A stretch of 64,000 nucleotides of DNA, taken from assembly GCA_964342815.1 (NCBI GenBank), contig CAYFHS010000015.1:23797-87796 (forward strand), read 5' to 3'. The position numbers and the translations under genes are program-made. Under the pieces are notes generated by a model, which did not search any database, was not told the origin of the DNA, and worked only from the letters and a program-made list of their open reading frames with translations. The stretch's first letter is position 1, and every line of letters begins with the position of its first letter. Positions 11,044 through 32,332 of the stretch are shown in pieces. The stretch is from an uncultured archaeon. GTDB taxonomy: Archaea; Thermoplasmatota; Penumbrarchaeia; JASLWR01.

Positions 11044-13287
11044 TTATAATATTTTATTACCGGCTATGACGTTCTGACCTGCGGAAATCCCCCCATCGCC
11101 GTTTGGCAATCGGTTATGCAAGAGAAGTTGCAGGTTTGGATATTTTTTCATTTCTCCCTGAATCATCCTTATAATTGGCTCGTTGTACGACACACCCCCG
11201 GTGACGCCAATATACTTTATTCCCTGGCAGGATGCATGTTCGCATGCCACCCTCGTCATCTCCCCTACCATTGTGTAAACAAGAGAATGAGCAATGTCGC
11301 ATTTCTTGATGAAATCCATTTCTTTCGGCGGCCCGTGCGAAAAGATCTGTTCGAACAGGGGAAGGGTCTCTATCACCGAACATTCCCCTCCTCTCGTAGT
11401 TTTCTCGAAATTATATTTATGCCGTCCCATGGCGAGGTACTTCTCTAGTTTCATTGCGGGCTCGCCGTCATATGTGCGGTAATGGCAGATATCGAGATAT
11501 GCCGAAAGCGCATCGAGCACACGACCTGTGCTGCTTGTCAGAATGCTTTTATTAAGCAATTTTTTAAAAATATCCATTTCGGTATCGGAATAATTGGGAA
11601 AGTCGAGGTCGCTTTCGGTAAGTTCCGAAATGGCGAAAACAAGCCTCCTTACATCTCGTATTGCCTTTTCACCGCCCAGTAAAGGAATATTCTCGAGCTG
11701 CCCGATCCTTTTGTAATCCTCAAAGGAGGAGTCAATAATCTCGCCGCCCCATACATTACCGTCCGGGCCGTAACCGCTGCCGTCAAGAGCCAGCGCCACC
11801 ATTCTCCCGTCGATCCCGTTGTCCAGAGCCAGGGATGCAGCGTGAGCCCAGTGGTGTTGTACATCCAAAATCTCGCAGTCGAATTTCTTTCGGTATTCCT
11901 CCGCCTCGGCCCTGGTTGCGTATCGCGGGTGAAGGTCCCTTGCAACGCAATCCAGCTCCTCGATACCCAGAAGACCGCACATGTGGTCAGTGGCTTCCTC
12001 GAGGAAAAGAAGCGTATCGTAATTTTTTGTATTACCTATATACTGCGAGAGAAATATCTTACGTCGTTTCGATAAGGCCGTCACCACGTTCTCCTCGGCT
12101 CCCAAGGAGAGGATGGTACTTGGATAGTCAACATCAATGGGTTCCGGCACAAAGCTCCTGGATTTTCTAAGATAAAAGAGATTCTCATCAATAGTACGAA
12201 TTACACTGTCATCCACCCTTTGCACTATATCCCGGTCATGCAACAAATAACAATCGAGCCCCAGATCAAAGGAACTTTTGTTCTCGATGCATATCGGCTC
12301 GCCAGGGAGATTTGCGGAAGTGGCAACTATCCCGTCTCCGGAAAAATAACGAAAAAGAAGAAGGTGGGCAGGTGAATAGGGCAGCATCACCCCCACTGTA
12401 TCCAATCCCGGGGAGATCATTTCCATTATCTCCGATTCTACGTTTCTTTTTTTAAGTAGTACGATGGGTCTTTTGTGGGACGTCAATAATCCTTCGTCGG
12501 CGGGTGTGAGTCTCGTGTAGCTCCGTACCGCATCCATATCCCTCATCATCACCGCGAATGCCTTTTCAGGCCTGCGGTACAATTCCCTCATCCTCGGGAT
12601 AGACGCAAAATTACCACATATATGCATCCCTCCCCAGCTCTTCATCACCCCCACTTTTCCCTCATCCATATATTCTGCAAATTCCTCAAAACATCTTTCC
12701 TGGTTGGTTTCCGCAACATTTCCATCAGCATCATAGAGAATAAACTTAGGACCGCATTCTGGACAGGCCGTGGTCTGGGCATGGAAACGTCGGTTCCCGG
12801 GATCTATATATTCATCCTGACAGTTCAAGCACATATCAAACCCGACCATAGAGGTCTTCGGCCGGTCGTAGGGGACATCCCTGATAAGTGAATACCTGGC
12901 GCCACAGTCGGTACAGTTAATGAATGGGTATAGGTATCTTCGGTCCGACTCAGAAAAAAGTTCACTAGTACAGTTGTAACAGAGAGCTGAATCCGCCGGG
13001 ATCACGGATGATCTTTCACCTGTCCTCGACATAAGGATTGTGAATTTTTTGTAATCATCCATATCCACATCGTCGCTGGTCTCAGTTGTTATATTTTCGA
13101 TCTTTGCGAGAGGAGGCAAATCAAGTTTCAATCGTTCGATAAATTTCTTATGGTCACCATCCAGAACCACTTCTACATTGGATCCGTTATTCCGAACGTA
13201 TCCGGAAAAGCCCATAGCAGTGGCGATATTGTAGACGCAGGGCCTGAAACCCACGCCCTGAACGACTCCGGTCACTCGGATCCGCAT
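11044..13287 (-). CDS. hypF: Carbamoyltransferase HypF
   Basis: Acylphosphatase domain GVVQGVGFRP, two Zn fingers (CxxC...NCTDCG; CxxC...ACPECG), YrdC domain, and HHWAH / DGSGYG Kae1-like motifs. Confidence 0.97.
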   Translation of the reverse strand: MRIRVTGVVQGVGFRPCVYNIATAMGFSGYVRNNGSNVEVVLDGDHKKFIERLKLDLPPLAKIENITTETSDDVDMDDYKKFTILMSRTGERSSVIPADSALCYNCTSELFSESDRRYLYPFINCTDCGARYSLIRDVPYDRPKTSMVGFDMCLNCQDEYIDPGNRRFHAQTTACPECGPKFILYDADGNVAETNQERCFEEFAEYMDEGKVGVMKSWGGMHICGNFASIPRMRELYRRPEKAFAVMMRDMDAVRSYTRLTPADEGLLTSHKRPIVLLKKRNVESEIMEMISPGLDTVGVMLPYSPAHLLLFRYFSGDGIVATSANLPGEPICIENKSSFDLGLDCYLLHDRDIVQRVDDSVIRTIDENLFYLRKSRSFVPEPIDVDYPSTILSLGAEENVVTALSKRRKIFLSQYIGNTKNYDTLLFLEEATDHMCGLLGIEELDCVARDLHPRYATRAEAEEYRKKFDCEILDVQHHWAHAASLALDNGIDGRMVALALDGSGYGPDGNVWGGEIIDSSFEDYKRIGQLENIPLLGGEKAIRDVRRLVFAISELTESDLDFPNYSDTEMDIFKKLLNKSILTSSTGRVLDALSAYLDICHYRTYDGEPAMKLEKYLAMGRHKYNFEKTTRGGECSVIETLPLFEQIFSHGPPKEMDFIKKCDIAHSLVYTMVGEMTRVACEHASCQGIKYIGVTGGVSYNEPIIRMIQGEMKKYPNLQLLLHNRLPNGDGGISAGQNVIAGNKIL

Positions 13288-13310
13288 GGTGATTACCTAC
13301 CAAGATGATT

Positions 13311-13979
13311 TCAGTTTCCGCCGCCGGTCAAACCCATTGCCTCCATCAGCTCTTCGATGCCGTCCCCGTGTCTGGCATCTGTTAGAATCACAGGTAAACC
13401 GGGATCCACTGCCTTGATGTCCGATAATAGTCCTTGTGGGTCCACTTCCATGACTCCTGCAAGGTCGATCTTGTTGATTACAGCCAGATCAAGACACTGA
13501 AAGATCATTGGGTGCTTTCGTACCATGTCATCCCCTTCAGTGACAGAAATGACCATGACCCTCATTGTTGTTCCTAATGGAAAGTCAGCAGGACACACGA
13601 TATTACCCACGTTCTCTATGAAGAGAGTTTCTAGATTATTAAGGTCCATGTCATGTAGTGCGTGCTCCACCATATGGGCGTCAAGATGACATTCCTTACC
13701 GGTGTTCAGGTTGACCACGGGGAGGCCGTGAGCCCGGTACCGCCGGTAATCATCATCCCCTGCCACGTCCCCCGCTATCACGCCGATCTTCATCTTATCG
13801 GCTAGTTTATCAGATATAGCCTCTATCAACTTCGTTTTTCCGGAACCCACGGGGCCAAGAAAATCATAACTCTTGATATTATGTCGATCCAGATGTGCCA
13901 GATTTCCTGTGGCGATCCTTTCATTTTCCGAAAAAATATTGTTGCACAGGTCTATGGTGATTTCATGCATTACAACCAA
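13311..13979 (-). CDS. hypB: Hydrogenase nickel-incorporation GTPase HypB
   Basis: P-loop GPVGSGKT; motifs TGKECHLDAH, ENVGNIVCP and NKID. Confidence 0.96.
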   Translation of the reverse strand: MVVMHEITIDLCNNIFSENERIATGNLAHLDRHNIKSYDFLGPVGSGKTKLIEAISDKLADKMKIGVIAGDVAGDDDYRRYRAHGLPVVNLNTGKECHLDAHMVEHALHDMDLNNLETLFIENVGNIVCPADFPLGTTMRVMVISVTEGDDMVRKHPMIFQCLDLAVINKIDLAGVMEVDPQGLLSDIKAVDPGLPVILTDARHGDGIEELMEAMGLTGGGN

Positions 13980-14004
13980 CCTCTTCGTGAATCACTTTCC
14001 GCCC

Positions 14005-15081
14005 CTAGCAGATCCTCGGTATGGGATCGCCAATTGGAGCTTCCACCATTCTCTTTCCCCCGATTACGGTTTTCATAACAACCCCCCGTACGCTCCTAGT
14101 GGCAGTACCAATGATCATTGCATCCTTTCCCTCGGGTCTCCTTTTTATAGCCTCCAGAACCTCCTGAGCCAATCCGGGGACTACTCCCATGACCACCTTG
14201 CCCTCGTTACCTATCTCAAGAGGGTCAAGGCCAAGCATTTCGCAGGCACTTTGCACCCCGCTCATTATAGGAACCGCTTCCTCATGGATGAGAATACCCA
14301 GCTTGGATTTTTCCGCCATCTCGTTCAGGGTGTTTGCAAGCCCACCTCTCGTGGGATCTTTCATTCCAACGACACCTCCCACCTTAAGCGAATCCTCTAT
14401 CAATTTATTAAGGGGAGCCACGTCGCTGATTATCTCCGAGCTGAATTGATAACCTTCCCTGAAGGACAGAAGCGCTATGCCGTGATCTCCCATGGTTCCA
14501 GTAACAATTATCGAATCTCCTTCCGACAGGTTGGAATCCTGCAACCAGTTACCTTTGAAATCCCTGTGCTCCCTCACAGTATCAAAATTGCCGTCAAGCC
14601 ATTCAGACCTTCGACCGATTCCGCTGGTGTTGATGACCATCTTGTCAATAGCGCCATTCTCCACCACTTTCGTGTCCCCGGTTATTATCGGTACCTGGGC
14701 AAGCTCGCATGTTCGGGCAATACTCTCAACTATCCGTTCTAACTCCGATATGGAATAACCGTTCTCAATGACCATCGCAAGTGACAGGGCGAGGGGGTCC
14801 GCACCCATAACAGCCACGTCGTTCACGGTACCTGCTACTGACAGGCTGCCGATATCGCCTCCAGGAAAGAAGAGGGGTTTAACAGTATGTGAATCAGTGG
14901 TAAAAACAATCCCGTCAATGACAGCCCCGTCGTCCATTGCCCCCAGCGGAACCTCTATCTTCGAGCTTTTCATTTCATCACACAATGGCTCCAGGTGATT
15001 GAGGAATCTTGAAGATATCAATTCCTGCATCACACGACCGCCTGCTCCGTGGGAGAGCATTATTCGTTCGTCATCTACCAT
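14005..15081 (-). CDS. hypE: Hydrogenase maturation protein HypE
   Basis: HGAGG, DDGAV, TTDSHTVKPLFFPGGDIG, DPTRGG, and the C-terminal PRIC motif. Confidence 0.97.
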   Translation of the reverse strand: MVDDERIMLSHGAGGRVMQELISSRFLNHLEPLCDEMKSSKIEVPLGAMDDGAVIDGIVFTTDSHTVKPLFFPGGDIGSLSVAGTVNDVAVMGADPLALSLAMVIENGYSISELERIVESIARTCELAQVPIITGDTKVVENGAIDKMVINTSGIGRRSEWLDGNFDTVREHRDFKGNWLQDSNLSEGDSIIVTGTMGDHGIALLSFREGYQFSSEIISDVAPLNKLIEDSLKVGGVVGMKDPTRGGLANTLNEMAEKSKLGILIHEEAVPIMSGVQSACEMLGLDPLEIGNEGKVVMGVVPGLAQEVLEAIKRRPEGKDAMIIGTATRSVRGVVMKTVIGGKRMVEAPIGDPIPRIC

Positions 15082-15085
15082 GTTT

Positions 15086-16174
15086 TCACCCGTAGCGACC
15101 GTATTTCAACATGATGTTGCACGACCCTTCGGAGGTAACCATGCATGGACCAACAGGATTCTGCGGTGTACACACCTTTCCGAAAAGCGGGCATTCGTGG
15201 GAATGGATCAATCCTCTCAACACCTCCCCGCATCTGCAACCCTTGGGCTCTGTGAATTCCCTCCCCCTGAGTTCGAGTAGATCATCCTCAAACCTGACCC
15301 TTGCATCGTGCATTTCGTATTTCTTTCTGATACGCGAACCGCTAGCAGGTATTACTCCGAAACCTCGCCAACTAACATCGCAGACCTCAAAAACCGTTTC
15401 CATTAGTTTGATGGCTTTAAGATTCCCATGAGACCTGACAGCTCTTCCATAACCGTTTATCAATTTTCCCTCGCCCCTATTCACCTGAAGCGCCAGCTGG
15501 TATACTGCCATCATCAGGTCTAGGGGTTCGAAGCCGGTGATGACCTGGGGAACTCCGTATTCCGTTGAAAGGAACTCATATGGTGTTGAGCCGATAATGG
15601 TGGAAACATGTCCTGGTTCGATCAATCCGTCAAGTTTCAACTCACCCATCTCAACGATACCCTTCAGGGCAGGGGGGACCAATCGATGTGTGCACAATAT
15701 CGAGAAATTCGAAGGTAAACCCTCTTTTCCGGATAGCACTGCAGCGGTGGATGGTGCTGTGGTCTCGAATCCAATGGCCATGAAAACGACCTCGTGTCCG
15801 GGATTATCCCGTGCGATCACCACTGCATCGTCGATACTGTAGACCATTCTTACGTCCGCACCCCGGGATTGCATGTCAAAGAGTGTGAACTTTTCCCCGG
15901 GCACCCTCATCATATCGCCGAAGACAGTTATGGTCTTGCCCTTCTGGGCCAGGAGCATAACCTCCTCGATCTCTTCCGGAGGTGTAACGCAGACGGGACA
16001 ACCGGGACCCTGACGGATATCCACACCAAGATCCAGGATCAATGAATCGATTCCGTACCTGATGAAGGTATCCTGGTGCCCTCCACAAACATGCATAAGA
16101 GTTATATCGAGGTCCATTTCCTTCAATTTTGTTACGATCCGGTCGGCAATTTCCTTGTCACGATACTTGAACAT
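15086..16174 (-). CDS. hypD: Hydrogenase maturation protein HypD
   Basis: MHVCGGH, GPGCPVC, GFETT, PGHVS and the CRCG...C...C...PCMV cluster motif. Start moved to the ATG at 16174, which has GGAGG upstream. Confidence 0.96.
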   Translation of the reverse strand: MFKYRDKEIADRIVTKLKEMDLDITLMHVCGGHQDTFIRYGIDSLILDLGVDIRQGPGCPVCVTPPEEIEEVMLLAQKGKTITVFGDMMRVPGEKFTLFDMQSRGADVRMVYSIDDAVVIARDNPGHEVVFMAIGFETTAPSTAAVLSGKEGLPSNFSILCTHRLVPPALKGIVEMGELKLDGLIEPGHVSTIIGSTPYEFLSTEYGVPQVITGFEPLDLMMAVYQLALQVNRGEGKLINGYGRAVRSHGNLKAIKLMETVFEVCDVSWRGFGVIPASGSRIRKKYEMHDARVRFEDDLLELRGREFTEPKGCRCGEVLRGLIHSHECPLFGKVCTPQNPVGPCMVTSEGSCNIMLKYGRYG

Positions 16175-16607
16175 CGGGTACCTCCATTGTAATATTACGA
16201 ATAATACATTCCTTGCCGGTGGTGATATTGGGTACGGCATTGCATACCGGACATGAAATTAAGGGAAATATCTGATGAAAATCAGGTGTTTCCGAGTATT
16301 TTAGATCACCCTCATACCCGCAAACACATTGGATTGCGGCTTTTTTTTTCTTGACAATCAATTCTGCATTTTTCAGTATAGAAGAGCTTGCTGACGAGCC
16401 ACAATTTCGATTAGGGTTCATAAGACTCGGATTTTCAAGCAAGACACCATTTTTCAACACGTCAAAGGCGAATCCTAATTGTTCCTCTCCCAAAAATGTT
16501 AGTTCGCCTATTTCAAGAAATATTTTTGTTACCTCAGTCGCCCCATTCTTCTCTGCTTCAGCGATAACTGACCCCAGAATCTGGTTCATAACTGAGAGTT
16601 CATGCAC
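16158..16607 (-). CDS. hypA: Hydrogenase nickel chaperone HypA (with a 21-aa internal insertion)
   Basis: MHELS start (Ni site), IGELTF, Zn ligands CVCG and CPVC, GKECII. Confidence 0.93.
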   Translation of the reverse strand: MHELSVMNQILGSVIAEAEKNGATEVTKIFLEIGELTFLGEEQLGFAFDVLKNGVLLENPSLMNPNRNCGSSASSSILKNAELIVKKKKAAIQCVCGYEGDLKYSETPDFHQIFPLISCPVCNAVPNITTGKECIIRNITMEVPDVQVS

Positions 16608-16630
16608 CTTTGATCCCTACCTCGCTTCTT

Positions 16631-16876
16631 TCATTCAATTTCACCGTGCTTTGATGCATCATCTTCCACAGAAAGAAGTTCGTCCCACAGTCGAAGCGTC
16701 ACTTCTGCTTCTTTCCTGTCCATAACCTGGATCGCATAACCAGCATGAACCAGAACGTATTGACCTACATCAACTTCGACCAAAGTAATGTTCACTGCCT
16801 TGATCAACCCACCGTAATCCACCTCTGCCCTATTTCCTGTTTTCTCCAATACTTTACCGGGGATCGCTAAACACAT
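16631..16876 (-). CDS. hypC: Hydrogenase chaperone HypC
   Basis: MCLAIPG start (conserved Cys2) and VLVHAGYAI. Confidence 0.96.
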   Translation of the reverse strand: MCLAIPGKVLEKTGNRAEVDYGGLIKAVNITLVEVDVGQYVLVHAGYAIQVMDRKEAEVTLRLWDELLSVEDDASKHGEIE

Positions 16877-17236
16877 GACCACTCTTAAAACTCTCTACCT
16901 ATTTTAAGGTTATAACGAAATTGCCGACTATTGAAATCCTTCCAAGTAAAAAATAAGTTCGAATATTCCATTAATTCAGTTTTGCACAATCGATTGTTAT
17001 TTTTCGGTATAAAGTCTGAATCCATACTGTCCGAAAATACACAATCGTTAAAACTAACCTCATTTCATCCAACAAATTATTTAAATTACGACATAAATGT
17101 TCAGCTTGTATATTGTTAAAGTAATCCAGGTTTATAATTGAATTTCCACTGCGTTGCTTACGGAGTACCGGTCACTTGAAATAAGCCGTGTGTTTGGTAA
17201 GTATATCAAAAAAATCCGTCGTAATGGAGGGGTAGA

Positions 17237-19264
17237 ATGTCAATTGATGAGAATTCCGAAAGCGAAGAGCCGAAAGTGGGTGTTTACGTTTGTGAGTGCG
17301 GCATCAATATCAGTGCCGTTGTAGACGTTCAGGATGTATCGAAATACAACGAAACTCTTCAAAATGTCGTTACGAGCAAAGTTTACAAATACATGTGTTC
17401 CGACCCAGGACAGAACATGATCAAAAAGGATATCGAGGAATTGGGGCTTAACAGGGTAGTGGTGGCATCTTGTTCACCCCGTATGCATGAACCGACTTTC
17501 AGGAACGCAGTGGCTGACGGCGGATTGAATCCATATCTCTTTGAAATGACAAACATTCGCGAACATTGCTCCTGGGTACATAAAGATTCCCCGGAGGAAG
17601 CCACTGAAAAGGCAAAAGATCTCATCAGAATGGCAGTGGCAAAAGCAAGATTGCTCGAGCCTTTGGAGAAATCCGAAGTACCGGTGGAACCAACAGCTGT
17701 TGTGATAGGTGCGGGTATAGCTGGGATACAGGCCGCCTTGAGCATAGCCGATAACGGCTTCAAGGTATATCTCGTTGAAAGAACGCCCTCGGTGGGTGGA
17801 CGGATGTCTCAACTGGATAAAACCTTCCCCACTCTGGATTGCTCAGCATGTATACTAACACCGCGCATGGTGGACGTGGCAAGACACCCGAACATTGAGT
17901 TGCTTACCTATTCCGAAGTCACGGAGGTAAGTGGTTACATAGGAAATTTTTCCGTGAAGATCACCAAAAAACCAAGGTATATCGATATTGAAAAATGTGT
18001 AGGCTGCGGACTATGTGCATCCGCCTGTCGTCTTACCGGAAGAATTCCGAATGAATTCAACCTTGGGATGGATAAACGAGCCGTTCCATATATTCCTTTC
18101 CCTCAGGCCGTACCTTTGAAGTTCACCATTGATGGATCCCGTTGTCTCATGGTTACCCGTGGAAAATGTGGAGATCATCCATTGTGTGCTGAAGCATGTG
18201 ATGCCGATGCCATCGATTTCGAGCAAAAACCGGAAGAAATCGAACTCAAGGTAGGTACTATAGTAATCGCCTCGGGATTCGATATGTACGATCCCTCCCA
18301 TAAGCCGGAGTACGGGTACGGAAAGTACAAAAACGTCATTACGGGTTTGGAGTTCGAAAGGCTGGTATCCTCCTCCGGACCAACCGGAGGTCACATTGAG
18401 ATCGAGGGGGTCGAACCAAAAAACGTCGTCCTCATCCAGTGTGTCGGTTCCCGGGAAAGGGAAGAAGGCGGTAATTCTTATTGCTCGAGAGTTTGCTGCA
18501 TGTATACCGCAAAACACGGACACCTTATCCACGAGAAAATACCTGATGCCAATATTACAATCTTATATACTGACGTTAGAGCTTTCGGAAAGGGATTCGA
18601 AGAATTCTACAACCGTGTGAAAGGCGAAGGAGTGAATTATGTAAAGAGAGAACTTGAGGAGCCCATCGAAGTAGTTGCCAAAAATCCCGAGGGGGATGAT
18701 AATCTCCTGATGATAAAAAGTGGTGATGCACCCCCTCTGGAGGCTGACATGGTGGTTCTTGCAACCGCCATCGTCCCAAGGGAGGATGCGAAGAAGAAGA
18801 TCGGCCAGGTATTGAAGATATCTACCGGGGCAGACGGGTTCTTTCTGGAGGCCCATCCCAAATTACGCCCCATCGATACGATCACCAGCGGTATATTTTT
18901 AGCCGGATGCGGTCAAGGTCCGAAAGATATTCCCGATACTGTCGCCCAGGCCTCTGGCGCGGCTAAACGAGCGGCAATACCTCTTGCCCAGGGACGAGTC
19001 GAACTCGAACCTTTGAAATCGTTTCTGGTGGATAAAAACTGCGACGGATGCGCATACTGTATCGATCCCTGTCCGTACAATGCGCTCACGCTCATCGAAT
19101 ACATGAAAAAGGGAGATATGAAAAAAACCGTACAGGTGACCGAAGCTCTATGCCAGGGTTGCGGGGTATGCCAGGCCACCTGTCCCAAGCAGGGTATAGT
19201 TGTTAAGGGCTTCAAATTGGCCCAGTTGAATGCCATGGTCGATGCGGCTCTGGAGGTGGCATAA
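17237..19264 (+). CDS. hdrA: Heterodisulfide reductase subunit A (intact, full length)
   Basis: GVYVCECG, CSPRMHE, NIREHCSWVH, GAGIAG, LDKTFPTLDCSACI, inserted ferredoxin, CSRVCCMY, EAHPKLRP and C-terminal 2[4Fe-4S]. Confidence 0.96.
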   Translation: MSIDENSESEEPKVGVYVCECGINISAVVDVQDVSKYNETLQNVVTSKVYKYMCSDPGQNMIKKDIEELGLNRVVVASCSPRMHEPTFRNAVADGGLNPYLFEMTNIREHCSWVHKDSPEEATEKAKDLIRMAVAKARLLEPLEKSEVPVEPTAVVIGAGIAGIQAALSIADNGFKVYLVERTPSVGGRMSQLDKTFPTLDCSACILTPRMVDVARHPNIELLTYSEVTEVSGYIGNFSVKITKKPRYIDIEKCVGCGLCASACRLTGRIPNEFNLGMDKRAVPYIPFPQAVPLKFTIDGSRCLMVTRGKCGDHPLCAEACDADAIDFEQKPEEIELKVGTIVIASGFDMYDPSHKPEYGYGKYKNVITGLEFERLVSSSGPTGGHIEIEGVEPKNVVLIQCVGSREREEGGNSYCSRVCCMYTAKHGHLIHEKIPDANITILYTDVRAFGKGFEEFYNRVKGEGVNYVKRELEEPIEVVAKNPEGDDNLLMIKSGDAPPLEADMVVLATAIVPREDAKKKIGQVLKISTGADGFFLEAHPKLRPIDTITSGIFLAGCGQGPKDIPDTVAQASGAAKRAAIPLAQGRVELEPLKSFLVDKNCDGCAYCIDPCPYNALTLIEYMKKGDMKKTVQVTEALCQGCGVCQATCPKQGIVVKGFKLAQLNAMVDAALEVA

Positions 19265-22383: not shown

Positions 22384-22384
22384 A

Positions 22385-24157: not shown

Positions 24158-24348
24158 GCGAGGAAGTACAAGCTGAGTTCGAACCAGACATCGTTGCCTT
24201 TCTATGTAATTGGTGGAGTTTTTTTCTTTGTGCAATTTTCTGTGCTGGCTCCCCCTCGCAAAGAAAAAAATTCGGAAATGAAGAAACTCGAGGGAGCCTG
24301 CTCGAAAATTGTTACTCACTTCGTTCGCAGAAGGAGGTGGTTATTTGA
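24154..24348 (+). pseudogene. MvhD-like N-terminal stub (EFEPDIVAFLCNW) continuing into unrelated structured sequence; 64-aa ORF
   Basis: 24175-24215 matches the 5' part of the next gene (24351-24391) at 37/41 nt, then diverges. The ORF overlaps the upstream stop (ATGA) and the downstream start (TTGA). Confidence 0.55.
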
Positions 24349-24770
24349 GTGAGTTCGAACCAAATATCGTAGCCTTTCTATGTAACTGGTGCTCGTATGC
24401 AGGAGCCGATCTTGCAGGTACATCGAGAGCCCAATACCCACCGAACGTTAAGGTCATACGTGTGATGTGTTCGAGCCGCATCAATCCGTTATTCCTGATA
24501 AACACACTTCAGCAAGGGGCTGACGGTGTACTGATCGGCGGCTGCCACCCTGGTGATTGTCATTATGTCCAGGGCAATTACTTCGCCAGGAGGAAGTTCG
24601 GCCTCATAAAGAGTCTTATGGAGCAAGTCGGCGTCGATCCGGCAAGAGTGAAAATGGCCTGGGTATCCGCCTCGGAGGGATCAAAGTTTGCTGAATTGAT
24701 CCAGGAGCTTTCGGACGAATTGCGGGAGATTGGTCCCATGGAACAGTTCAAAAGGAGGGATGAGCTGTGA
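24345..24770 (+). CDS. flxD: MvhD/FlxD [2Fe-2S] subunit
   Basis: FEPNIVAFLCNWCSYAGADLAG, RVMCS, GCHPGDCHY, WVSASEG. TTG start at 24345 preceded by GGAGGTG. Confidence 0.93.
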   Translation: MSEFEPNIVAFLCNWCSYAGADLAGTSRAQYPPNVKVIRVMCSSRINPLFLINTLQQGADGVLIGGCHPGDCHYVQGNYFARRKFGLIKSLMEQVGVDPARVKMAWVSASEGSKFAELIQELSDELREIGPMEQFKRRDEL

Positions 24771-25735
24771 TTACGGAAATTCGAGAGGCGGTGAAGGAAT
24801 ATCTGGCCCGTGATGATGTAAAATATGCCATTGGCTACGAAAAGGGAACCTACGGCTCAAAGGTCGCTCCGTCATTTGCATTTTCTCCGAAGGACGTTGA
24901 TAAATTCATCTTTTCACCATTGTGCATCAATAACCTGGCCGTCTATCCGCTCCTAGAAGAAAAATTACCTTTACCAAGGGGACAGACAGCCGAGAAATCA
25001 AAGATTGTTGTTGTCCTGAAAGGATGTGACTCAAAGGCCATGCTCCAAATAATCAACGAAAAGGGATTGTCCCGTGATGATATCATTATTATCGGAGTGT
25101 CCTGCTCCGGAGTCATAGACCCGAAAAAGCTTCAGGCAAAGTTCCCAAATTCTCCAATCGACGCTGCCTATAAAGACGGTAAGTTCCTGCTGCTGGTCAA
25201 TGGGGAAGAACAGCATATTTCAAAAGATGAACTCATCTTTGAGAAGTGCAAGGTATGTGAAAATCCCAATCCGGTTATCTACGATCTGCTTGTGGGAGAA
25301 AAGGTTGAACCAAAGGTCGACGATTTTACCGACGTTACAGCGAGGAAGGACGATAAACCGGAGGAAAGATGGAACCACTGGGGACAGGAGTTCGACCGTT
25401 GTATCCGATGTTACGCCTGCAGAGGTGTTTGCCCCATGTGCTACTGCAAGAAGTGTATTGCAGAAGAGTTGAGACCGGCATGGATCGGACGTTCGGTAAA
25501 TTTGTCAGAAAATACCGCTTGGAACCTGATCAGGGCCTACCACCTTGCAGGAAGATGCATCGATTGCGGTGAATGCGAGAGGGTTTGTCCCATGGACCTC
25601 CCATTACGGGAACTGAACCGAAAGATGGCAAAAGATGTTTTTGAGTTATTCGATTACAAGGCCGGAATCAACCTGGACGGGAAACCGGTTTTAGCTGTCT
25701 ACAAACCCGATGACCCGGAGGATTTTATATTGTAG
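24767..25735 (+). CDS. flxC: FlxC-like Fe-S protein (FdhB/FrhB-related, C-terminal 2[4Fe-4S])
   Basis: CIRCYACRGVCPMCYC and RCIDCGECERVCP motifs; position between mvhD/flxD and an AsrA-like gene matches the flxDCBA order. Confidence 0.82.
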   Translation: MITEIREAVKEYLARDDVKYAIGYEKGTYGSKVAPSFAFSPKDVDKFIFSPLCINNLAVYPLLEEKLPLPRGQTAEKSKIVVVLKGCDSKAMLQIINEKGLSRDDIIIIGVSCSGVIDPKKLQAKFPNSPIDAAYKDGKFLLLVNGEEQHISKDELIFEKCKVCENPNPVIYDLLVGEKVEPKVDDFTDVTARKDDKPEERWNHWGQEFDRCIRCYACRGVCPMCYCKKCIAEELRPAWIGRSVNLSENTAWNLIRAYHLAGRCIDCGECERVCPMDLPLRELNRKMAKDVFELFDYKAGINLDGKPVLAVYKPDDPEDFIL

Positions 25736-25743
25736 GTGATAGC

Positions 25744-26754
25744 ATGATATTGCCAAAGAACAAACTGAACCATTGGCTGGCCGCCCTGAAGAAACATGAT
25801 CTGTTCACCCCTACCCGGAACGGTGACGTTGTTCTTTTCAGTCCCTTTTCCGGAGAAAAAGATGTCATTCTGGAGGGGAGGCCAACCTTGGGCCCCAAGG
25901 GTATATTGTTTCCCCAGACCGAAACCCTTTTTACATATCGTATCGGAAAAAATGCAGAAATTGTGGATGCTGCAGACAAGCGAACGAAGAGGATCATATT
26001 CGGCATCCGTCCCTGTGATGCCAGGGCGTTCTCGGTTCTGGATAATCTGTTCAAGGATGAATACCAGGACACTTATTACCTAAATGCGAGAGAAGCCACG
26101 ACCCTGGTTGGTCTGACCTGTTCCCAGCCGAATACAAACTGTTTCTGTACCTCCCTGTCCGGCAGCCCAGGTGAAAGAGACGACGTAGACATTCTGCTCA
26201 CCGACCTCGGTGACGGATATTACGTTGATATCGTAACCGAAAAGGGACAAATTTTGGTGGACGAGAACTATCAGCTCTTCTCGGAGGTCTCCGACAGTGA
26301 CGAAAGCAGGAAAGAGGCAATAATAGCGGATGCGGAAAAAAGCATTTCAAGAATGATCGATTCCACCGACCTGCCCAACAAATTAGGGAAGATTTTCGAG
26401 AGTGACTATTGGAATAAGACCGCTATGAAATGTATCGGCTGCGGGACCTGCACATACCTCTGCCCAACCTGCTATTGTTTCGATATACAGGATGAGATTC
26501 AGGGTATAAAGGGTAAGAGAGCGCGAATGTGGGATTCATGCATGTACCCCGAATATACCATACACACGTCCGGCCACAATCCCAGGCCTGCCAGGATGAA
26601 TAGAATTCGGAACAGGGTATATCACAAGTTCAAGTACTACCATGATAATTTTGACGTCCATCTCTGCATAGGATGCGGCAGATGCGTGGACAAATGTCCC
26701 GTGAACATAGATATAATCGACATAATAACCCATGTGAAGGAGGGAGCACAATGA
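25744..26754 (+). CDS. flxB: FlxB-like Fe-S protein (AsrA / sulfhydrogenase beta family)
   Basis: FGIRPCD, C...CFCTS, CIGCGTCTYLCPTCYCF, WDSC, RNRVYHKF, CIGCGRCVDKCP. Confidence 0.88.
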   Translation: MILPKNKLNHWLAALKKHDLFTPTRNGDVVLFSPFSGEKDVILEGRPTLGPKGILFPQTETLFTYRIGKNAEIVDAADKRTKRIIFGIRPCDARAFSVLDNLFKDEYQDTYYLNAREATTLVGLTCSQPNTNCFCTSLSGSPGERDDVDILLTDLGDGYYVDIVTEKGQILVDENYQLFSEVSDSDESRKEAIIADAEKSISRMIDSTDLPNKLGKIFESDYWNKTAMKCIGCGTCTYLCPTCYCFDIQDEIQGIKGKRARMWDSCMYPEYTIHTSGHNPRPARMNRIRNRVYHKFKYYHDNFDVHLCIGCGRCVDKCPVNIDIIDIITHVKEGAQ

Positions 26755-27677
26755 GCAATCCCTATGTACCCCGTCTTGCCAAAGTTGTTGAGATACGCAA
26801 GGAAGTGGGGGGTCCAAGGCCGATTAAGACCTTCAAGATGGAATTCAATGACCCGAATATAAGAAATTCTTTCGAGTTCAAACAGGGTCAGACCGCCATG
26901 CTGAGCGTTCTCGGTGTCGGGGAGAGTATGTTTGCCATATCGTCTCCCTCTACTCGAAAAGGATACATCGAGTGCAGCGTGATGAACGCAGGGGGGAAAA
27001 ACACAACAGCCCTTCACCAACTGGAAGTGGGTGATACGGTTGCTATCCGCGGCCCTTACGGCAATCATTTTCCATTGGATGATTGGAAGGGAAAGAACCT
27101 GATATTCATCGGAGGAGGGATTGGGCAGGCGCCTTTGAGATCAGTCTATATGACTGCTTTGGATCGAAGGGATGAGTTTGGGGATATCCTCATCATTTAC
27201 GGGGCGCGGACCTCCGACGACCTGGCTTTCAAATACGAACTTGATGAACTGGAGAAACGGGAGGATGTTGACCTCAGATTATGTCTCGACTGGAAATTCG
27301 GCCCGGGGGGAAAGATACAGGAAGAGGCGGAAGCAGGATGGAAGGTTATCAACACCGAGGAACCTGCTTGTACACTGGATGAGGATTCATTATGTTCAAA
27401 GTTCACCTGTTTCGTGCCAGAATTGGTGCTGGTGATGGCCCCCCGTTCAGAAAACACCATTGCCTTGACCTGCGGGCCGCCCATAATGATCAAGTTCGTG
27501 GTTCAGAATTTATCGAAACTGGGATTCCACCCGCAGCAGATATATACCACAATGGAGATGAGAATGAAATGCGGGATTGGTAAATGTGGTCGATGTAATA
27601 TCGGAAATCTTTATGTATGCAAGGACGGCCCCGTTTTCACCAATGAAGAATTGAAAAATGTACAAGGGGAGAGGTGA
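26751..27677 (+). CDS. flxA: FlxA-like FAD/NAD(H)-binding oxidoreductase (AsrB / sulfhydrogenase gamma family)
   Basis: RGPYGN, GGGIGQAPLRS, CGPPIM and MKCGIGKCGRC...C ([2Fe-2S]). ATG at 26751 overlaps the flxB stop. Confidence 0.9.
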   Translation: MSNPYVPRLAKVVEIRKEVGGPRPIKTFKMEFNDPNIRNSFEFKQGQTAMLSVLGVGESMFAISSPSTRKGYIECSVMNAGGKNTTALHQLEVGDTVAIRGPYGNHFPLDDWKGKNLIFIGGGIGQAPLRSVYMTALDRRDEFGDILIIYGARTSDDLAFKYELDELEKREDVDLRLCLDWKFGPGGKIQEEAEAGWKVINTEEPACTLDEDSLCSKFTCFVPELVLVMAPRSENTIALTCGPPIMIKFVVQNLSKLGFHPQQIYTTMEMRMKCGIGKCGRCNIGNLYVCKDGPVFTNEELKNVQGER

Positions 27678-27682
27678 TATAG

Positions 27683-28096
27683 ATGGATGAATACGAGCCA
27701 AAGATCATAGCTTTCTGCTGTAACTGGTGCAGTTATGCCGGAGCGGACCTCGCCGGAACGTCGAGAACGCAATATCCGCCAAATGTCAGGATCATACGGG
27801 TAATGTGCTCGGGTATGGTACACCCTAATCTCGTTATTGAAGCCCTAACAAAGGGAGCGGATGGTGTGCTCATATGCGGATGTCATATTGGGGACTGCCA
27901 CTATATCGAAGGGAACCACAGAACCGAGAAAAGGGCGGAGGCTATTGAGCTGATGCTGGAGGATTTTGGTCTTGAATACGAGAGATTCAGGCTGGAATGG
28001 GTATCGGCCAGCGAGGGAGCAAAATTTGCCCGAGTCGTAGGTGAAATGGTGGAGGATCTGAAAATGGTCGGACCCAGTCCTTACGCACCGATGTAA
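27683..28096 (+). CDS. mvhD: Second MvhD [2Fe-2S] subunit
   Basis: YEPKIIAFCCNWCSYAGADLAG, RVMCSG, GCHIGDCHY, WVSASEG. Confidence 0.93.
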   Translation: MDEYEPKIIAFCCNWCSYAGADLAGTSRTQYPPNVRIIRVMCSGMVHPNLVIEALTKGADGVLICGCHIGDCHYIEGNHRTEKRAEAIELMLEDFGLEYERFRLEWVSASEGAKFARVVGEMVEDLKMVGPSPYAPM

Positions 28097-28120
28097 TTAC
28101 ATTTCATATGAACTACCATT

Positions 28121-28630
28121 GTGAGCCTTATGGAAAACACGGACGTCCCGGATTATTTTAGCAGACCCATCCTGGTATTCGGCTGCGGGAATGATCTACT
28201 GGGTGATGACGGATTCGGCCCGGCAGTGATGGATTATTACCACAAAAAACATGAGATCCCGGATTTCGCTTGCGTTATGAACGTGGGAACCAGCATACGG
28301 AAGATCCTGTTCGACATCGTGATAGGTGAATCCAAACCTGACAAGATAGTGGTGATCGATGCTTTGGATGTCGGAAAAAAGGCCGGAGAGGTTTTCGAGC
28401 TGCCGTTGGATGATATTCCAGAAATCAAGATAGATGATTTTTCGATGCATCAGGTACCTACCTCGAACCTCCTAAAGGAACTGAGAGATTACTGCAGTGT
28501 GGAGATAGTGATACTCGCTTGCCAGATAGAGAACATTCCCGAAATGGTCCAACCGGGTCTTTCGGTCAGTGTAAGCAAAGCGATCCCTGTAATGTGTGAG
28601 ATGATCCATAAAATAATATACGCAGAGTAA
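28121..28630 (+). CDS. Hydrogenase maturation endopeptidase
   Basis: GCGNDLLGDDGFG, VIDA and SMHQ motifs (HybD/HycI/FrhD-type). Confidence 0.92.
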   Translation: MSLMENTDVPDYFSRPILVFGCGNDLLGDDGFGPAVMDYYHKKHEIPDFACVMNVGTSIRKILFDIVIGESKPDKIVVIDALDVGKKAGEVFELPLDDIPEIKIDDFSMHQVPTSNLLKELRDYCSVEIVILACQIENIPEMVQPGLSVSVSKAIPVMCEMIHKIIYAE

Positions 28631-28654: not shown

Positions 28655-28873
28655 ATGGAGGAATCCATCATGGAAAACGATATAGACAGCTATAAGATCA
28701 TAGAAGGTAAGAAATTCATGTGGGATGGTCTCGTATACGAAGAGGAAAACAAGGCACAAGAGACTGAGAACGGATACAAGGAAAAGAATTTCGAGACAAT
28801 GGTTTTGGAAGAAGAGGGAAAATTTCTGATCTATACCAGGCGGGAAGTAACCGAGATAGTACTGGATGATTAG
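28655..28873 (+). CDS. Small acidic hypothetical protein at the end of the hdr-flx operon
   Basis: 72-aa ORF, co-oriented, GGAGG upstream of the second ATG; KFMWDG..Y motif. Confidence 0.6.
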   Translation: MEESIMENDIDSYKIIEGKKFMWDGLVYEEENKAQETENGYKEKNFETMVLEEEGKFLIYTRREVTEIVLDD

Positions 28874-29030: not shown

Positions 29031-29681
29031 TCAATAACTCGGACAGCGGATTGGATCGTCAGGGTTCTTTCCCCGCAAATGGGCCCTGACGTGAGCTTTC
29101 CATTCCTCTTTTGAAGATAAACACTGCTGCCTTTTTATTTTGGATATGGAAGTACCAAGCACACCCGGTAGAACTCCGATGCTCGACGCCACGAATTTCT
29201 GTGCAGTTTCCACATCTTCAGCCACAAAGGAAAACAATATACTGTCAGTGAATAAATGGAAAGTATATGCAAGATAAACTGGGATAACATCAGAGGTTTC
29301 GGGAAAATTCGATATTGTATTGTATATGTTTTCGAATTCTCTTGGGTATGCCTTTATTGTGACTGTAAACCTCGTTTGTTCCCTTAACAGGCTTTCTTTG
29401 ATATAGAAAAACTTCATATTGGTGGGACTGAACATCCAAATGGCATCCACTCCTTTGATCTTGGCGATCCTCTTTGCGACAAAATCTCCCAGGACATCGG
29501 GGTCCTCTGCTTTTATAAAGAGACTTGTATCTTCATGTTTTGCACGTTTAGTAATATACACGAGTTTTGCTTTTCCCTCAAACTCTTTTTCCAATTCTTC
29601 TTGATTTTCCAATATGTAGTTCCAAAGCACATCGCTTCCTCGGCCAGTCTTTACACGTACGATTGCTATCATATATATCAA
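29031..29681 (-). CDS. Hypothetical protein, possibly two tandem ferredoxin-like (Lrp/AsnC ligand-binding-like) domains without an HTH
   Basis: Two similar beta-alpha-beta halves (..FVAKRIAKIKGVDAI / ..FVASSIGVLPGVLGT); GAGG RBS upstream. Confidence 0.6.
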   Translation of the reverse strand: MIYMIAIVRVKTGRGSDVLWNYILENQEELEKEFEGKAKLVYITKRAKHEDTSLFIKAEDPDVLGDFVAKRIAKIKGVDAIWMFSPTNMKFFYIKESLLREQTRFTVTIKAYPREFENIYNTISNFPETSDVIPVYLAYTFHLFTDSILFSFVAEDVETAQKFVASSIGVLPGVLGTSISKIKRQQCLSSKEEWKAHVRAHLRGKNPDDPIRCPSY

Positions 29682-29927: not shown

Positions 29928-31373
29928 TCAGTTCTTGAAGCTATCCAATAGATTTCCTTCATGGTCGACGATATCCACTTTCACGGCGATGGTGCCGTCG
30001 AGATTGTGTGTCGCACAACTCAGGCAGGGATCATAGGCTCTGATGGCCATTTCCACCATATTCAGGATACCCTCATCATAATGGCCATCCTTTATCAACG
30101 TGGTGGCAGCCTGTTTTACGGACATGTTGATGGGTGCGTTGTTATGTGTCGTTCCCACTATAATGTTCACATTCGTCAACAAACCATTTTCATCAGTTGT
30201 GTAATCGTGGATCAGTGTTCCCCTTGGAGCCTCTACACAGCCAACACCCCTTGCGGCACGCGGAGTCACCTTAACACGGGTTTCCCTACCGGTGATCTCC
30301 GGGTCATGAAGCAGTTCCAATGCGTGTTCAGCGTGATAAACCAACTCGATGAGTCTTGCCCAATGATACAGCAAAGTTGCCTGGACAGGACGTCCAAATG
30401 CGGCTCTGAATTCCTCGAATTCGGTCTGCGCCAATGGAGTTGCCATTTTATCAGCTACATTTATTCGTGCCAGTGTATTCGTTCGATAAATTCCTTTCGG
30501 TGCCGCCAGGTCCATATCGAATCCTTCGCCCCAGGACTTTGCATAAGGGAATTTCATGTAACTCCAAGGCAGTACCTTCTCACCTATGTGATCGAGATAC
30601 TGGTCGTATGCAAAATCAGTATAGGTACCGTCGGGCTTCATCAATCGCAGATTCCCATCATAGCAATTGAGTGAGCCGTCCCCGGTAACTGTTCCAAGGA
30701 AACCTGTGTTTATCACACCCACGGTTTTCACGGCATCCAGATAAGCTGGGAAAATATTTTTCTTGGCAAAATCGATGGTGAACTTGGCAAATTCCAGTAT
30801 CTCTTCCGCCAAGGGTATCAGTTTCTGTCGCTCCGATTCCATGAGTGGTTTGCTGAATCCACCCGGAACGGCCGTGACCGGGTGAATGGACTTTCCGCTC
30901 AATATATGTAGCATCTGTGCGCCAAGATGTCGGTTACGGATCACCTTTTTGGCAATATCGGGATGTTTCTGTGCGATACCTATCACGTTCCTGACGGAAT
31001 AATCCGCATCGGGGCCCATGACAAAGTCAGCTCCCGCGAGGAAATAGAAATGAAGTATGTGTTCTTCGGTATAGGCGACGCTGTTGCAGAGATCCCTCAA
31101 TTTTTTCCCGGTTGGTGTGGGGGTTACTCCATACACAGCATCATTGGCCTTTGCCGATGCCAGATGATGTGACCACGGGCAAACTCCGCAAATGCTCGTT
31201 ACTATGCGCGGCATTTCTTCCACGGGCCGACCGAGGCAGAACTTCTCGAATCCTCTCAGTTCCACAGTTTGGAATCTCGTGTCTGCAACATTCCCTTCAT
31301 CGTTCAATTCGATCACAACTTTCCCATGACCTTCAAGTCTTGATACTGGAGCTATCGTTAATGTCTTTCCCAT
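29928..31373 (-). CDS. mvhA: [NiFe]-hydrogenase large subunit, MvhA / group 3c-like
   Basis: SRLEGHG; L1 motif SICGVCPWSH; EAPRGTLIH; L2 motif RAYDPCLSCATH plus a cleavable C-terminal extension. Start moved to the ATG at 31373. Confidence 0.93.
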   Translation of the reverse strand: MGKTLTIAPVSRLEGHGKVVIELNDEGNVADTRFQTVELRGFEKFCLGRPVEEMPRIVTSICGVCPWSHHLASAKANDAVYGVTPTPTGKKLRDLCNSVAYTEEHILHFYFLAGADFVMGPDADYSVRNVIGIAQKHPDIAKKVIRNRHLGAQMLHILSGKSIHPVTAVPGGFSKPLMESERQKLIPLAEEILEFAKFTIDFAKKNIFPAYLDAVKTVGVINTGFLGTVTGDGSLNCYDGNLRLMKPDGTYTDFAYDQYLDHIGEKVLPWSYMKFPYAKSWGEGFDMDLAAPKGIYRTNTLARINVADKMATPLAQTEFEEFRAAFGRPVQATLLYHWARLIELVYHAEHALELLHDPEITGRETRVKVTPRAARGVGCVEAPRGTLIHDYTTDENGLLTNVNIIVGTTHNNAPINMSVKQAATTLIKDGHYDEGILNMVEMAIRAYDPCLSCATHNLDGTIAVKVDIVDHEGNLLDSFKN

Positions 31374-31378
31374 ATCAT

Positions 31379-32332
31379 TCACCTCCTTACGCGTCTCACT
31401 GGTAACGGCCTGAGCCTGTTCTGTCCACCGATATACCTGTTCAAAAGGGCTCTTCGGTCCTCGATCTGTTTCGCATCCAGACCTATGCTGGATAGTGCGC
31501 CTAACATGTCTACCAGTGGATTCGCTCCCTTGCGGACCGGTCCGAAGCAACCCCTGCACGGCATATAGCCTTGTACGCATCGCGGTACATTCGTTCCACC
31601 GCTGTCTTCAGTTGCACAACCTGAACGGGTCACCGGGCCCAGACACAGGAATCCCTGTTCCATGAGGCACCTTGTGTTCTCCCAGGGCTCACCCTGGGCG
31701 AAGGCTATATCTTCCAGTGGACGTTTAAGTGCGACGTCCGCTTTCTTATCACGTTTAACCGGGCAGGTGTCGCACACGCTCTTTTCCTCCATCTCGAAAG
31801 GTTTCCCTTCGAGAAGGCTTGTGAGAGCATCAACGATCAATCCCGGTCTTGTGGGACAACCCGGGATATATACATCCACCGGTACGACCTCATCCAAAGC
31901 ATAAACCCGATCCAATAATGGAGGCAGATTTTCCGTAGGTGTCTCCCCAGGGTCCGTGGAATCGGTATTTCGATATACCTTCTCATATAATCCCTCAAGC
32001 GTTGTCATATTCGCCAACGCAGGAATCCCGCCAAAACAGGCACAGGATCCCAGGGAAATGAGCGTTCCGCATTTCTCTCTCATCGCTTCGGCAACGTGTT
32101 TCTCTTTTTCGTTTCGTATCCCACCGGAGATTATACCCACATCGGCTTCGGGTATCTCAATTACGTTTGGATCGCCTTCCCCAGTTTGACCATGATACTT
32201 GTGATCCATTAGGACCGGGATATGGACAAATTCTAGAGCCGGAAGCAGGTCCAAAAGTGGTTCTCCAATGTCGAGTATGGAAACTTCACATCCACCACAG
32301 ATGTTAAGCCACTCTTCTGCTACTTTTACCAT
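31379..32332 (-). CDS. mvhG: [NiFe]-hydrogenase small subunit MvhG
   Basis: CGGCE, GSCA..GGIP, IPGCP, CxxC, CL...GFLCLGPVT..GC and PCRGCFG motifs. Confidence 0.93.
   Translation of the reverse strand: MVKVAEEWLNICGGCEVSILDIGEPLLDLLPALEFVHIPVLMDHKYHGQTGEGDPNVIEIPEADVGIISGGIRNEKEKHVAEAMREKCGTLISLGSCACFGGIPALANMTTLEGLYEKVYRNTDSTDPGETPTENLPPLLDRVYALDEVVPVDVYIPGCPTRPGLIVDALTSLLEGKPFEMEEKSVCDTCPVKRDKKADVALKRPLEDIAFAQGEPWENTRCLMEQGFLCLGPVTRSGCATEDSGGTNVPRCVQGYMPCRGCFGPVRKGANPLVDMLGALSSIGLDAKQIEDRRALLNRYIGGQNRLRPLPVRRVRR

Follow-up and report, generated by a model that had tools for sequence, protein, structure and literature searches.

The 64,000-nucleotide stretch of archaeal DNA analysed here (the window) carries, at positions 11044-32332, an island of genes for a group 3c-type [NiFe] hydrogenase, two HdrA flavoprotein equivalents, a Bfu module and FlxABC, with no gene for HdrB or HdrC. 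Tentatively, the island is read as encoding a thiol-independent complex that links H2, NAD(P)H and ferredoxin, in which one adaptor, MvhD2, would dock the hydrogenase MvhAG, the other, MvhD1, would dock FlxABC, and HdrBC would take no part. Surveys routinely read a group 3c hydrogenase encoded beside hdrA as Mvh-HdrABC reducing an unknown heterodisulfide (e.g. PMC11287216, PMC9723677), and a conserved operon that combines Mvh and Flx with two HdrA units and Bfu, but has no HdrBC, suggests that a thiol couple is dispensable for some such hydrogenases. The window lies on contig C15 (87.8 kb) of the genome under study (G000; completeness 88.9%), whose other contigs are denoted C1, C2, C4, C21, C41 and so on. 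Gene identities derive from Pfam and NCBIfam profile searches and from matches to solved chains. The relatives compared include an uncultured Thermoplasmata metagenome-assembled genome (MAG; G042) and a groundwater MAG (G041); the class is represented by 37 genomes in the collection compared, and the phylum-level survey of MvhA covered 401 sampled genomes.

The strand layout, taken from the open reading frame (ORF) listing with Pfam and NCBIfam matches, divides the island into three transcription units. The first, on the minus strand (11044-16882), is hypF-hypB-hypE-hypD-hypA-hypC. The second, a ten-gene operon on the plus strand (17237-28630), encodes in order HdrA1, HdrA-N::NuoE, NuoF, NuoG-N::HdrA-C, MvhD1, FlxC, FlxB, FlxA, MvhD2 and HycI, and the third, convergent to it on the minus strand, consists of mvhG, mvhA and orf216. 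All 19 genes are open, and the junctions of the operon are overlaps or gaps of at most 24 nucleotides, with the sole exception of a 151-nucleotide gap before mvhD1. An earlier interpretation made from the letters and ORFs of this DNA (the sequence-only reading) had listed six hyp genes, a maturation protease, two HdrA equivalents, flxDCBA, a second MvhD and mvhGA in three units, and the profile searches place every one of these where that reading had put it. The flanking ORFs encode transporters, peptidases and surface proteins unrelated to the island, which is therefore bounded as described.

HdrA1 (17237-19264, plus strand) is a full-length HdrA flavoprotein of 675 residues that matches 5odc_A (4.5e-235) and 8rvu_a (1e-238) over its full length. 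The second HdrA is split across two polypeptides. Its N-terminal half, residues 1-258, runs from the N-domain through the initial portion of the TrxR domain to the first CxxCxxCxxxCP motif within the inserted ferredoxin domain, is 68% identical to residues 13-270 of HdrA1, and is fused to a NuoE/HydC/BfuC [2Fe-2S] domain in HdrA-N::NuoE (19265-20521, plus strand; Pfam FAD_oxidored, and 2Fe-2S_thioredx at residues 276-414; NCBIfam HdrA at 2-257 and HoxE/NuoE at 267-414), a protein with more than 120 full-length homologue clusters. The C-terminal half, residues ~254-670, holds the second ferredoxin motif, the rest of the TrxR domain and the C-terminal ferredoxin domain, and is 53% identical to residues 254-670 of HdrA1. 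It sits behind a short BfuA/NuoG/HoxU-like [2Fe-2S] plus 2x[4Fe-4S] domain in NuoG-N::HdrA-C (22364-24157, plus strand; Pfam Fer2_4 and Fer4; NCBIfam HoxU/FeFe-A6 at 8-105 and HdrA at 167-593). Both HdrA units retain the six cluster-binding Cys sets, the CxxC pair and a lysine aligned with K409 of 5ODC, which in HdrA1 is K426.

Between the two halves lies the gene for NuoF (20518-22383, plus strand), a protein with an FMN/NAD(H) site which its N-terminal [2Fe-2S] and C-terminal 2x[4Fe-4S] domains, recognised from Pfam matches and Cys motifs, assign to the HydB/BfuB type. Its best solved relatives are likewise HydB-type (7t2r_B, the NiFe-HydB, at 5.7e-237, then 8a6t_B, 7q4v_B, 9n5u_B, which is NfnB, and 8oh5_B), with scores about twice as high as those of respiratory NuoF, which reaches only ~1e-108. 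The 'NuoG' is the N-terminal Fe-S part only, a BfuA without the His-ligated cluster motif or the catalytic domain. Two HdrA equivalents and NuoEFG had been claimed from the sequence, and both are present in this refined form: the BfuC and BfuA partners of NuoF are each fused to one HdrA half. 'NuoEFG' thus amounts to a whole Bfu module as Schut et al. 2022 (PMC9304861) define it, one that interrupts HdrA at its inserted ferredoxin domain.

The hydrogenase itself is encoded on the opposite strand. MvhA (29928-31373, minus strand), a group 3c-type [NiFe] large subunit, carries the RxCGxC and DPCxxC Ni-Fe motifs; its ORF of 550 residues overcalls the start, which truly lies near 31373. The nearest solved chain is 5odc_F (4.3e-121), with the NiFe-HydABCSL large subunit 7t2r_D close behind (8.1e-116), and VhuA is the top NCBIfam family, though under its equivalog cut-off. 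The small subunit MvhG (31379-32332, minus strand) matches Pfam Oxidored_q6 and NCBIfam VhuG. No group 4 [NiFe], complex-I 49-kDa or [FeFe] homologue was found in G000 at its 88.9% completeness, MvhA being the only hydrogenase found, and this one hydrogenase compares with six MvhD genes.

Two of those MvhD genes, both matching PF02662, are in the island. MvhD1 (24309-24770; Pfam FlpD, 1.2e-53), a [2Fe-2S] adaptor, occupies the FlxD position and is followed on the same plus strand by the Fe-S protein FlxC (24767-25735; Pfam Fer4_17/Fer4_8 and a weak FrhB_FdhB_C), by FlxB (25744-26754; Pfam Fer4_22; NCBIfam ShyB, HydB and AsrA), which resembles sulfhydrogenase beta and AsrA, and by FlxA (26751-27677; Pfam FAD_binding_6, NAD_binding_1 and DHODB_Fe-S_bind; NCBIfam sulfhydrogenase gamma), a subunit with FAD, NAD(P)H and [2Fe-2S] sites. 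MvhD2 (27683-28096, plus strand; Pfam FlpD, 5.5e-54), the presumed adaptor of MvhAG, comes next. In the loci compared, MvhD1-type genes always stand immediately upstream of flxC, and MvhD2-type orthologues (78-81% identity) accompany mvhGA or its HdrA in G042, G041 and two further genomes (G006, G040). In solved Fdh-Hdr complexes the C-terminal region of FdhB touches MvhD. The C-terminal Fe-S domain of FlxC matches this region (7bkb_E, 8rvu_E). The gene neighbourhoods and the resemblance of FlxC to FdhB fit the earlier proposal that one MvhD serves MvhAG and the other FlxABC, with MvhD1 as the probable FlxABC adaptor and MvhD2 as that of MvhAG.

The CCG domain of HdrB and HdrD (PF02754) has no match anywhere on the 87.8-kb contig C15, two HdrB sequences used as tblastn queries returned nothing above noise in the window, even at E up to 10, and HdrC queries found only generic Fe-S similarity there. 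The window is thus without hdrB and hdrC, as had been claimed. Genome-wide, the picture is mixed: three intact hdrCB pairs (on C4, on C41 and at 207 kb of C1) and further CCG proteins were found, but each intact pair lies in cis with hdrA genes of its own and none stands alone. The C4 operon reads hdrC-hdrB-[HdrA'::NuoE]-NuoF-[NuoG-N::HdrA::HdrA]-MvhD-FlxCBA and has no hydrogenase, on C41 a giant HdrA-HdrA-MvhD fusion adjoins hdrCB, and on C1 hdrA is followed directly by hdrC and hdrB. The genome also holds a decayed hdrCB pair at 261 kb of C1, CCG proteins on C12 and C21, and an HdrD-like gene on C46 that adjoins a multihaem cytochrome. As a separate observation, GcvH-like lipoyl-carrier genes occur in G000 on C4 (94392-94817) and C18, and in G041 at 5640-6074 of its locus L115, upstream of hdrCB in locus L031; those of G041 and C4 thus lie near hdrCB-carrying Hdr clusters, and none is found on contig C15.

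The island's genes are linked again in G042 and G041, so their linkage is not due to chance. G042 has a single co-directional operon of twelve tightly packed genes without hdrBC, in the order [HdrA-N::NuoE]-NuoF-[NuoG-N::HdrA-C]-MvhD1-FlxC-FlxB-FlxA-MvhD2-MvhG-MvhA-small ORF-HdrA1; upstream of it lie 243 nucleotides (32% GC) closed by stops in every frame, and a convergent ORF comes after it. G041 has HdrA1-MvhD2-[HdrA-N::NuoE]-NuoF-[NuoG-N::HdrA-C]-CooS, with mvhGA and hycI at a distance of ~5 kb and further, hdrCB-bearing Hdr clusters on either side. Against the window, the proteins of these two genomes are 75% (the N-domain fusion), 73-80% (MvhA), 79-81% (MvhD2) and 69-70% (HdrA1) identical. 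The linkage is conserved in these two genomes; related clusters usually carry hdrCB. The CooS-type Ni-CO dehydrogenase of G041 (locus L029, 14968-16884; Prismane family, 530 bits) stands in the place of the window's mvhD1-flxCBA, which suggests that donor modules are exchangeable; G000 has its own CooS on C2, 43% identical to that of G041.

Several lines of evidence argue for a thiol-independent complex. The parts are all intact, both HdrA units keep their cofactor ligands, NuoF is of the HydB type, contig C15 has no CCG domain, the gene neighbourhoods fit the pairing of the adaptors, FlxC resembles FdhB, and MvhA is the only hydrogenase found. The G042 operon joins all the parts without hdrBC, and G041 keeps the HdrA/Bfu/MvhD2 core near mvhGA; the HdrBC-using loci of G000 keep hdrCB in cis with the hdrA operon; and a Bfu module and HdrA in series have a precedent in class II benzoyl-CoA reductase (BCRII). 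In solved complexes, the bifurcating FAD receives mid-potential electrons through MvhD-type adaptors; the high-potential electron leaves by the TrxR-domain cluster for HdrC or BamD and the low-potential one by the inserted ferredoxin domain, and a Bfu module can drive NADH and reduced ferredoxin into an HdrA unit (bioRxiv 10.64898/2026.04.10.717634). HdrA works in them as a dimer or pseudo-dimer (bioRxiv 10.64898/2026.04.10.717634), which favours a pair of HdrA1 and split HdrA in one particle.

Mapped onto this wiring, the most economical arrangement would be a single soluble particle built on the HdrA1/split-HdrA pseudo-dimer. MvhD2 would plug MvhAG (H2/H+) into the HdrA pair and MvhD1 would plug in FlxABC (NAD(P)H/NAD(P)+), with the Bfu module, which has NADH and ferredoxin sites, covalently tied to the low-potential exit of the split HdrA. 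NAD(P)+ would then replace the disulfide as the higher-potential partner and HdrBC would be no part of the complex, so that H2, NAD(P)H/NADH and ferredoxin could be coupled reversibly, by flavin-based bifurcation or confurcation and with flow in either direction. Of the earlier suggestion that NAD+ reduction at NuoF or FlxA stands in for disulfide reduction, the NAD(P)H modules are indeed present, in the HydB-type NuoF and in FlxA, and the replacement itself we infer, as we do the assembly into one complex, which adaptor pairs with which module, that HdrBC is not needed, and which way electrons flow. A stronger version is doubtful: a double-bifurcation hydrogenase in which the HdrA pseudo-dimer and Bfu act in series, as they do in BCRII, with pyridine nucleotides and ferredoxin as the exits, FlxABC (NAD(P)+) in place of HdrBC on the high-potential branch and Bfu hard-wired to the low-potential ferredoxin domain. 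Such an HdrA enzyme, free of any thiol couple, would set the balance of H2, NADH, NADPH and ferredoxin in a non-methanogenic archaeon through its sole hydrogenase.

Several observations weigh against a thiol-independent complex. The locus type is rare, being found in only two other species genomes, or 3 genomes in all, and MvhA at 63% identity or more occurs in only 7 of the 401 sampled genomes of the phylum. Scars of rearrangement are visible: mvhGA is inverted relative to G042, and inside the operon's only sizeable gap lies a 42-nucleotide relic copy of the mvhD1 5' end (24174-24215, plus strand), which translates to EFEPDIVAFLCNW, is 90% identical to 24350-24391 and looks like a trace that local duplication or recombination left where the HdrA-C gene meets mvhD1. 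The TrxR-domain [4Fe-4S] cluster persists in both HdrA units and finds no evident partner in the island, and Flx as an acceptor would need the MvhD path, the entry side in solved structures, to run backwards. Beyond the three intact hdrCB pairs of G000 itself, hdrCB is encoded in cis in the majority of related clusters (the f7 genomes, G007, G008, G040, and loci L031, L064 and L118). Clusters of the C4/f7 type begin with hdrC-hdrB in every case with upstream sequence, as seen by Pfam in G007, G008, G025 and C4; BLAST with HdrB and HdrC queries finds the same start in L031, L043 and L064, and a short contig of G010 has an HdrB-like gene alone upstream. The f7 operon ends in mvhD-mvhG-mvhA, and L118 (metagenome contig Ga0164318_10001112) reads hdrC-hdrB-[HdrA-N::NuoE]-NuoF-[NuoG-N::HdrA-C]-mvhD-mvhG-mvhA, a complete Mvh-HdrABC gene set whose HdrA is Bfu-split. 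In G040, hdrC-hdrB belongs to the hdrA operon that converges on mvhGA, and hycI and hyp genes are close by. Some 60 bacterial loci have the canonical order hdrB-hdrC-hdrA-flxDCBA, with hdrB and hdrC in nearly all of the complete ones. In a tree of BfuB, G041, G042 and the G001/L031 clusters, the latter linked to HdrCB, fall together with the window (support 97/97), which means that lack of HdrBC does not define a single clade and that modules have been swapped. The earlier description of the island as a self-contained, thiol-independent hub accordingly holds in that HdrBC is absent from both the island and the G042 operon, but both adjectives must stay conditional, because hdrCB exists in the genome and in most related clusters.

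The retained TrxR-domain cluster and the frequency of hdrCB among relatives keep other explanations alive. Two enzymes might share the island, a unit of MvhAG, MvhD2 and HdrA1 beside an Nfn/Stn-like NADPH:NAD+/ferredoxin transhydrogenase made of FlxABC, MvhD1 and the split HdrA-Bfu. Such parts do occur separately: on C4, Flx, split HdrA and Bfu (with hdrCB) stand without Mvh, in G006 and G040 Mvh accompanies MvhD2 and a double HdrA with no Bfu adjoining, and G041 has CooS after its Bfu::HdrA-C gene, in the mvhD1-flxCBA place. Two NAD(P)H-type sites per operon would suit a transhydrogenase, there are known Nfn enzymes of the Bfu type (9n5u_B and 8oh5_B being among the best matches), and the 151-nucleotide gap separates the HdrA/Bfu genes from mvhD1. 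This division of labour is nonetheless somewhat unlikely, given the twelve co-directional, tightly packed genes of G042 with HdrA1 after mvhA, the HdrA dimers and pseudo-dimers of solved complexes, which favour an HdrA1/split-HdrA pair, and the position of MvhD2 at the close of the flx gene run in the window. A conventional Mvh/Flx-HdrABC would instead recruit HdrBC in trans from another hdrCB locus and reduce an unknown disulfide, e.g. a lipoyl or DsrC-like carrier. The three intact hdrCB pairs, the GcvH-like carrier genes on C4 and C18, the rule of hdrCB among related clusters and the HdrC-feeding cluster kept in both HdrA units all suit it; it is made improbable by the embedding of every intact hdrCB pair in another hdrA operon, by the G042 operon, likewise without hdrBC, and by a contig C15 with neither a CCG nor a GcvH-like gene.

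The scars raise the further question of whether rearrangement has left the island without hdrCB and without any working bifurcation, a remnant of which only the hydrogenase, along with a single HdrA or Flx partner, would function. Besides the mvhD relic at 24174-24215 and the inversion of mvhGA relative to G042, the decay of another hdrCB pair of G000 agrees with such a history, as does the same-genus genome G001, which has neither mvhA nor a window-type cluster. Decay of the island itself is very improbable all the same: its 19 genes are open, the cofactor ligands of the HdrA units are all conserved, gene junctions are tight or overlapping, and orthologues 63-81% identical persist in other genomes.

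Were some group 3c hydrogenases to work without a thiol couple, inferences on the H2 metabolism of Thermoplasmatota, and probably also of Asgard archaea, from anoxic marine settings would change. In the island, moreover, nature has joined two unrelated bifurcation modules by gene fusion, which complements the single solved example, BCRII, and the twelve-gene operon of G042 is a defined target for expression and cryo-electron microscopy.

The maturation genes of the hydrogenase complete the island. On the minus strand, hypF (11044-13287; Pfam HypF_C_2, zf-HYPF, Sua5 and Acylphosphatase), present in single copy in the genome, encodes the carbamoyltransferase for [NiFe] maturation, hypB (13311-13979; Pfam cobW/HypB/UreG) the nickel-inserting GTPase and hypA (16158-16607; Pfam HypA) the nickel metallochaperone. 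They are accompanied by hypE (14005-15081; Pfam AIRS and AIRS_C), 60-62% identical to the mvh-adjacent hypE of G006 and G040, by hypD (15086-16240; Pfam HypD, 447 bits), whose start is probably ~21 codons inside the ORF, and by hypC (16631-16882; Pfam HupF_HypC). The divergent intergenic region between hypC and hdrA1 (16883-17236; 354 bp, 32% GC) presumably holds the promoters of both operons. At the far end of the plus-strand operon, hycI (28121-28630; Pfam HycI) encodes an endopeptidase that matures the hydrogenase large subunit, a role that agrees with the C-terminal extension of MvhA beyond DPCLSCATH. MvhA, MvhG, the Hyp proteins and HycI are all single-copy in G000.

Two further ORFs were absent from the sequence-only reading. 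A conserved acidic protein of 67 residues (28670-28873, plus strand) follows hycI; ORFs 48-56% identical to it adjoin mvhA or hycI in G042, G006 and G041, and it has 30 homologue clusters, the single named match being a Thermoplasmata archaeon. It matches no Pfam family and the atlas comparison returned no function; it is a candidate for a so far unnoticed accessory protein of the hydrogenase. Downstream of mvhA, orf216 (29031-29681, minus strand) encodes tandem Lrp/AsnC-type ligand-binding (RAM) domains without a DNA-binding domain, as indicated by a weak Pfam AsnC_trans_reg match and by atlas feature and structure matches. It is absent from the related Mvh loci compared, and a paralogue (24% identity) lies on C21, just downstream of a 903-residue CCG-domain protein. 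Beyond the island, a CDF-family cation efflux gene (9702-10691) adjoins hypF, and a protein with three TFIIB-type zinc ribbons (32638-33288) is encoded divergently from mvhG; either could relate to metal supply or regulation of the island.

HdrA1 and HdrA-N (window 17237-20038) are 73% identical to the HdrA pair of a MetVF cluster at 253131-256001 of C1, a within-genome value above the 69-70% identity of HdrA1 to its positional orthologues in G041 and G042, which hints at a recent duplication or gene conversion between these paralogues. A rule equating the count of HdrA N-domains with that of MvhD genes was rejected, as it fails in L031, in G041 and in the C1 cluster. Elsewhere, mvhGA, hycI and hypE of G006 (contig C6, loci L108-L109) adjoin a long same-strand array whose repeated unit is an MvhD, alone or fused, and behind it a double HdrA of ~1000 residues, with an HdrD-like CCG protein (384-residue frame) near its far end. 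G012 has mvhGA without an adjoining Hdr gene; its nearest CCG gene, ~5 kb off with a 264-residue frame, is probably unrelated. A metagenome scan with the NuoE part as query yielded L118 and otherwise relatives of at most 49% identity, with no window-type locus among them. The organism itself is present in several marine or seawater samples, as short unitigs 100% identical to its DNA occur in four DNA runs from four studies. Those unitigs do not span the gene junctions of the island, and unitig joints that turn back are explained by the paralogy of HdrA1 and HdrA-N.

One of the closest known systems is MvhAGD-HdrABC of hydrogenotrophic methanogens (5ODC, 8RVU), to which MvhA, MvhG, MvhD and full-length HdrA of the island are clearly homologous, with the HdrA cofactor ligands and the K409 equivalent kept. 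Unlike it, the island lacks HdrB, HdrC and the polyferredoxin MvhB, and adds a Bfu-split second HdrA and a second MvhD with FlxCBA. In Desulfovibrio and many Clostridia, FlxABCD-HdrABC (Ramos et al. 2015, as cited in PMC5861303) shares with the island the order flxD(mvhD)-flxC-flxB-flxA next to hdrA, as well as homology, but it has the hdrB/hdrC that the island lacks, and the island adds the Bfu-split HdrA and a [NiFe] hydrogenase.

The Bfu family was set out as a class by Schut et al. 2022, and its HydB-type enzymes are described as bifurcating (PMC9304861; bioRxiv 10.64898/2026.04.10.717634). The island's BfuB has all the defining domains found in HydABC and in NiFe-HydABCSL of Acetomicrobium mobile (7T2R; PMC9304861), and the net reaction proposed here, of H2 with NAD+ and ferredoxin, would be the same by a different route. 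The hydrogenase subunits of NiFe-HydABCSL join the HydABC core directly, whereas the hydrogenase of the island is Mvh-type with an MvhD adaptor gene, and the island's BfuC and BfuA are fused to the two halves of an HdrA. The class II benzoyl-CoA reductase Bam(BC)2DEFGHI places Bfu (BamGHI), the MvhD-like BamF and the HdrA pseudo-dimer BamE in series (bioRxiv 10.64898/2026.04.10.717634). It is the only solved complex to join a Bfu module, an MvhD-like adaptor and an HdrA pseudo-dimer, all three of which the island encodes. The island differs in having no BamD (HdrBC/HdrD-like) high-potential exit, and no aldehyde-oxidoreductase-type tungsten enzyme gene was found among the ORFs of the island or its scanned flanks. 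Moreover, the Bam Bfu feeds the C-terminal ferredoxin domain, whereas that of the island is spliced into the inserted ferredoxin domain, the low-potential exit, and both FAD sites of the island keep the signature lysine, which only one does in BamE.

Also close are the paralogous operon on C4 and the f7, G007, L031 and L118 clusters, which share the split-HdrA/Bfu design and FlxCBA and whose BfuB is 62-65% identical to that of the island, but which begin with hdrC-hdrB and, in C4, have no hydrogenase. The N-terminal domain of the split HdrA is missing in the C4, f7 and L031 clusters and kept in G007 and L118. Full-text literature searches turned up how Bfu enzymes are classified, the structure of BCRII and surveys on the diversity of HdrA, and no account of an Mvh-HdrA-Bfu-Flx operon without HdrBC. 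Set beside these systems, the island is a new variant built from known modules.

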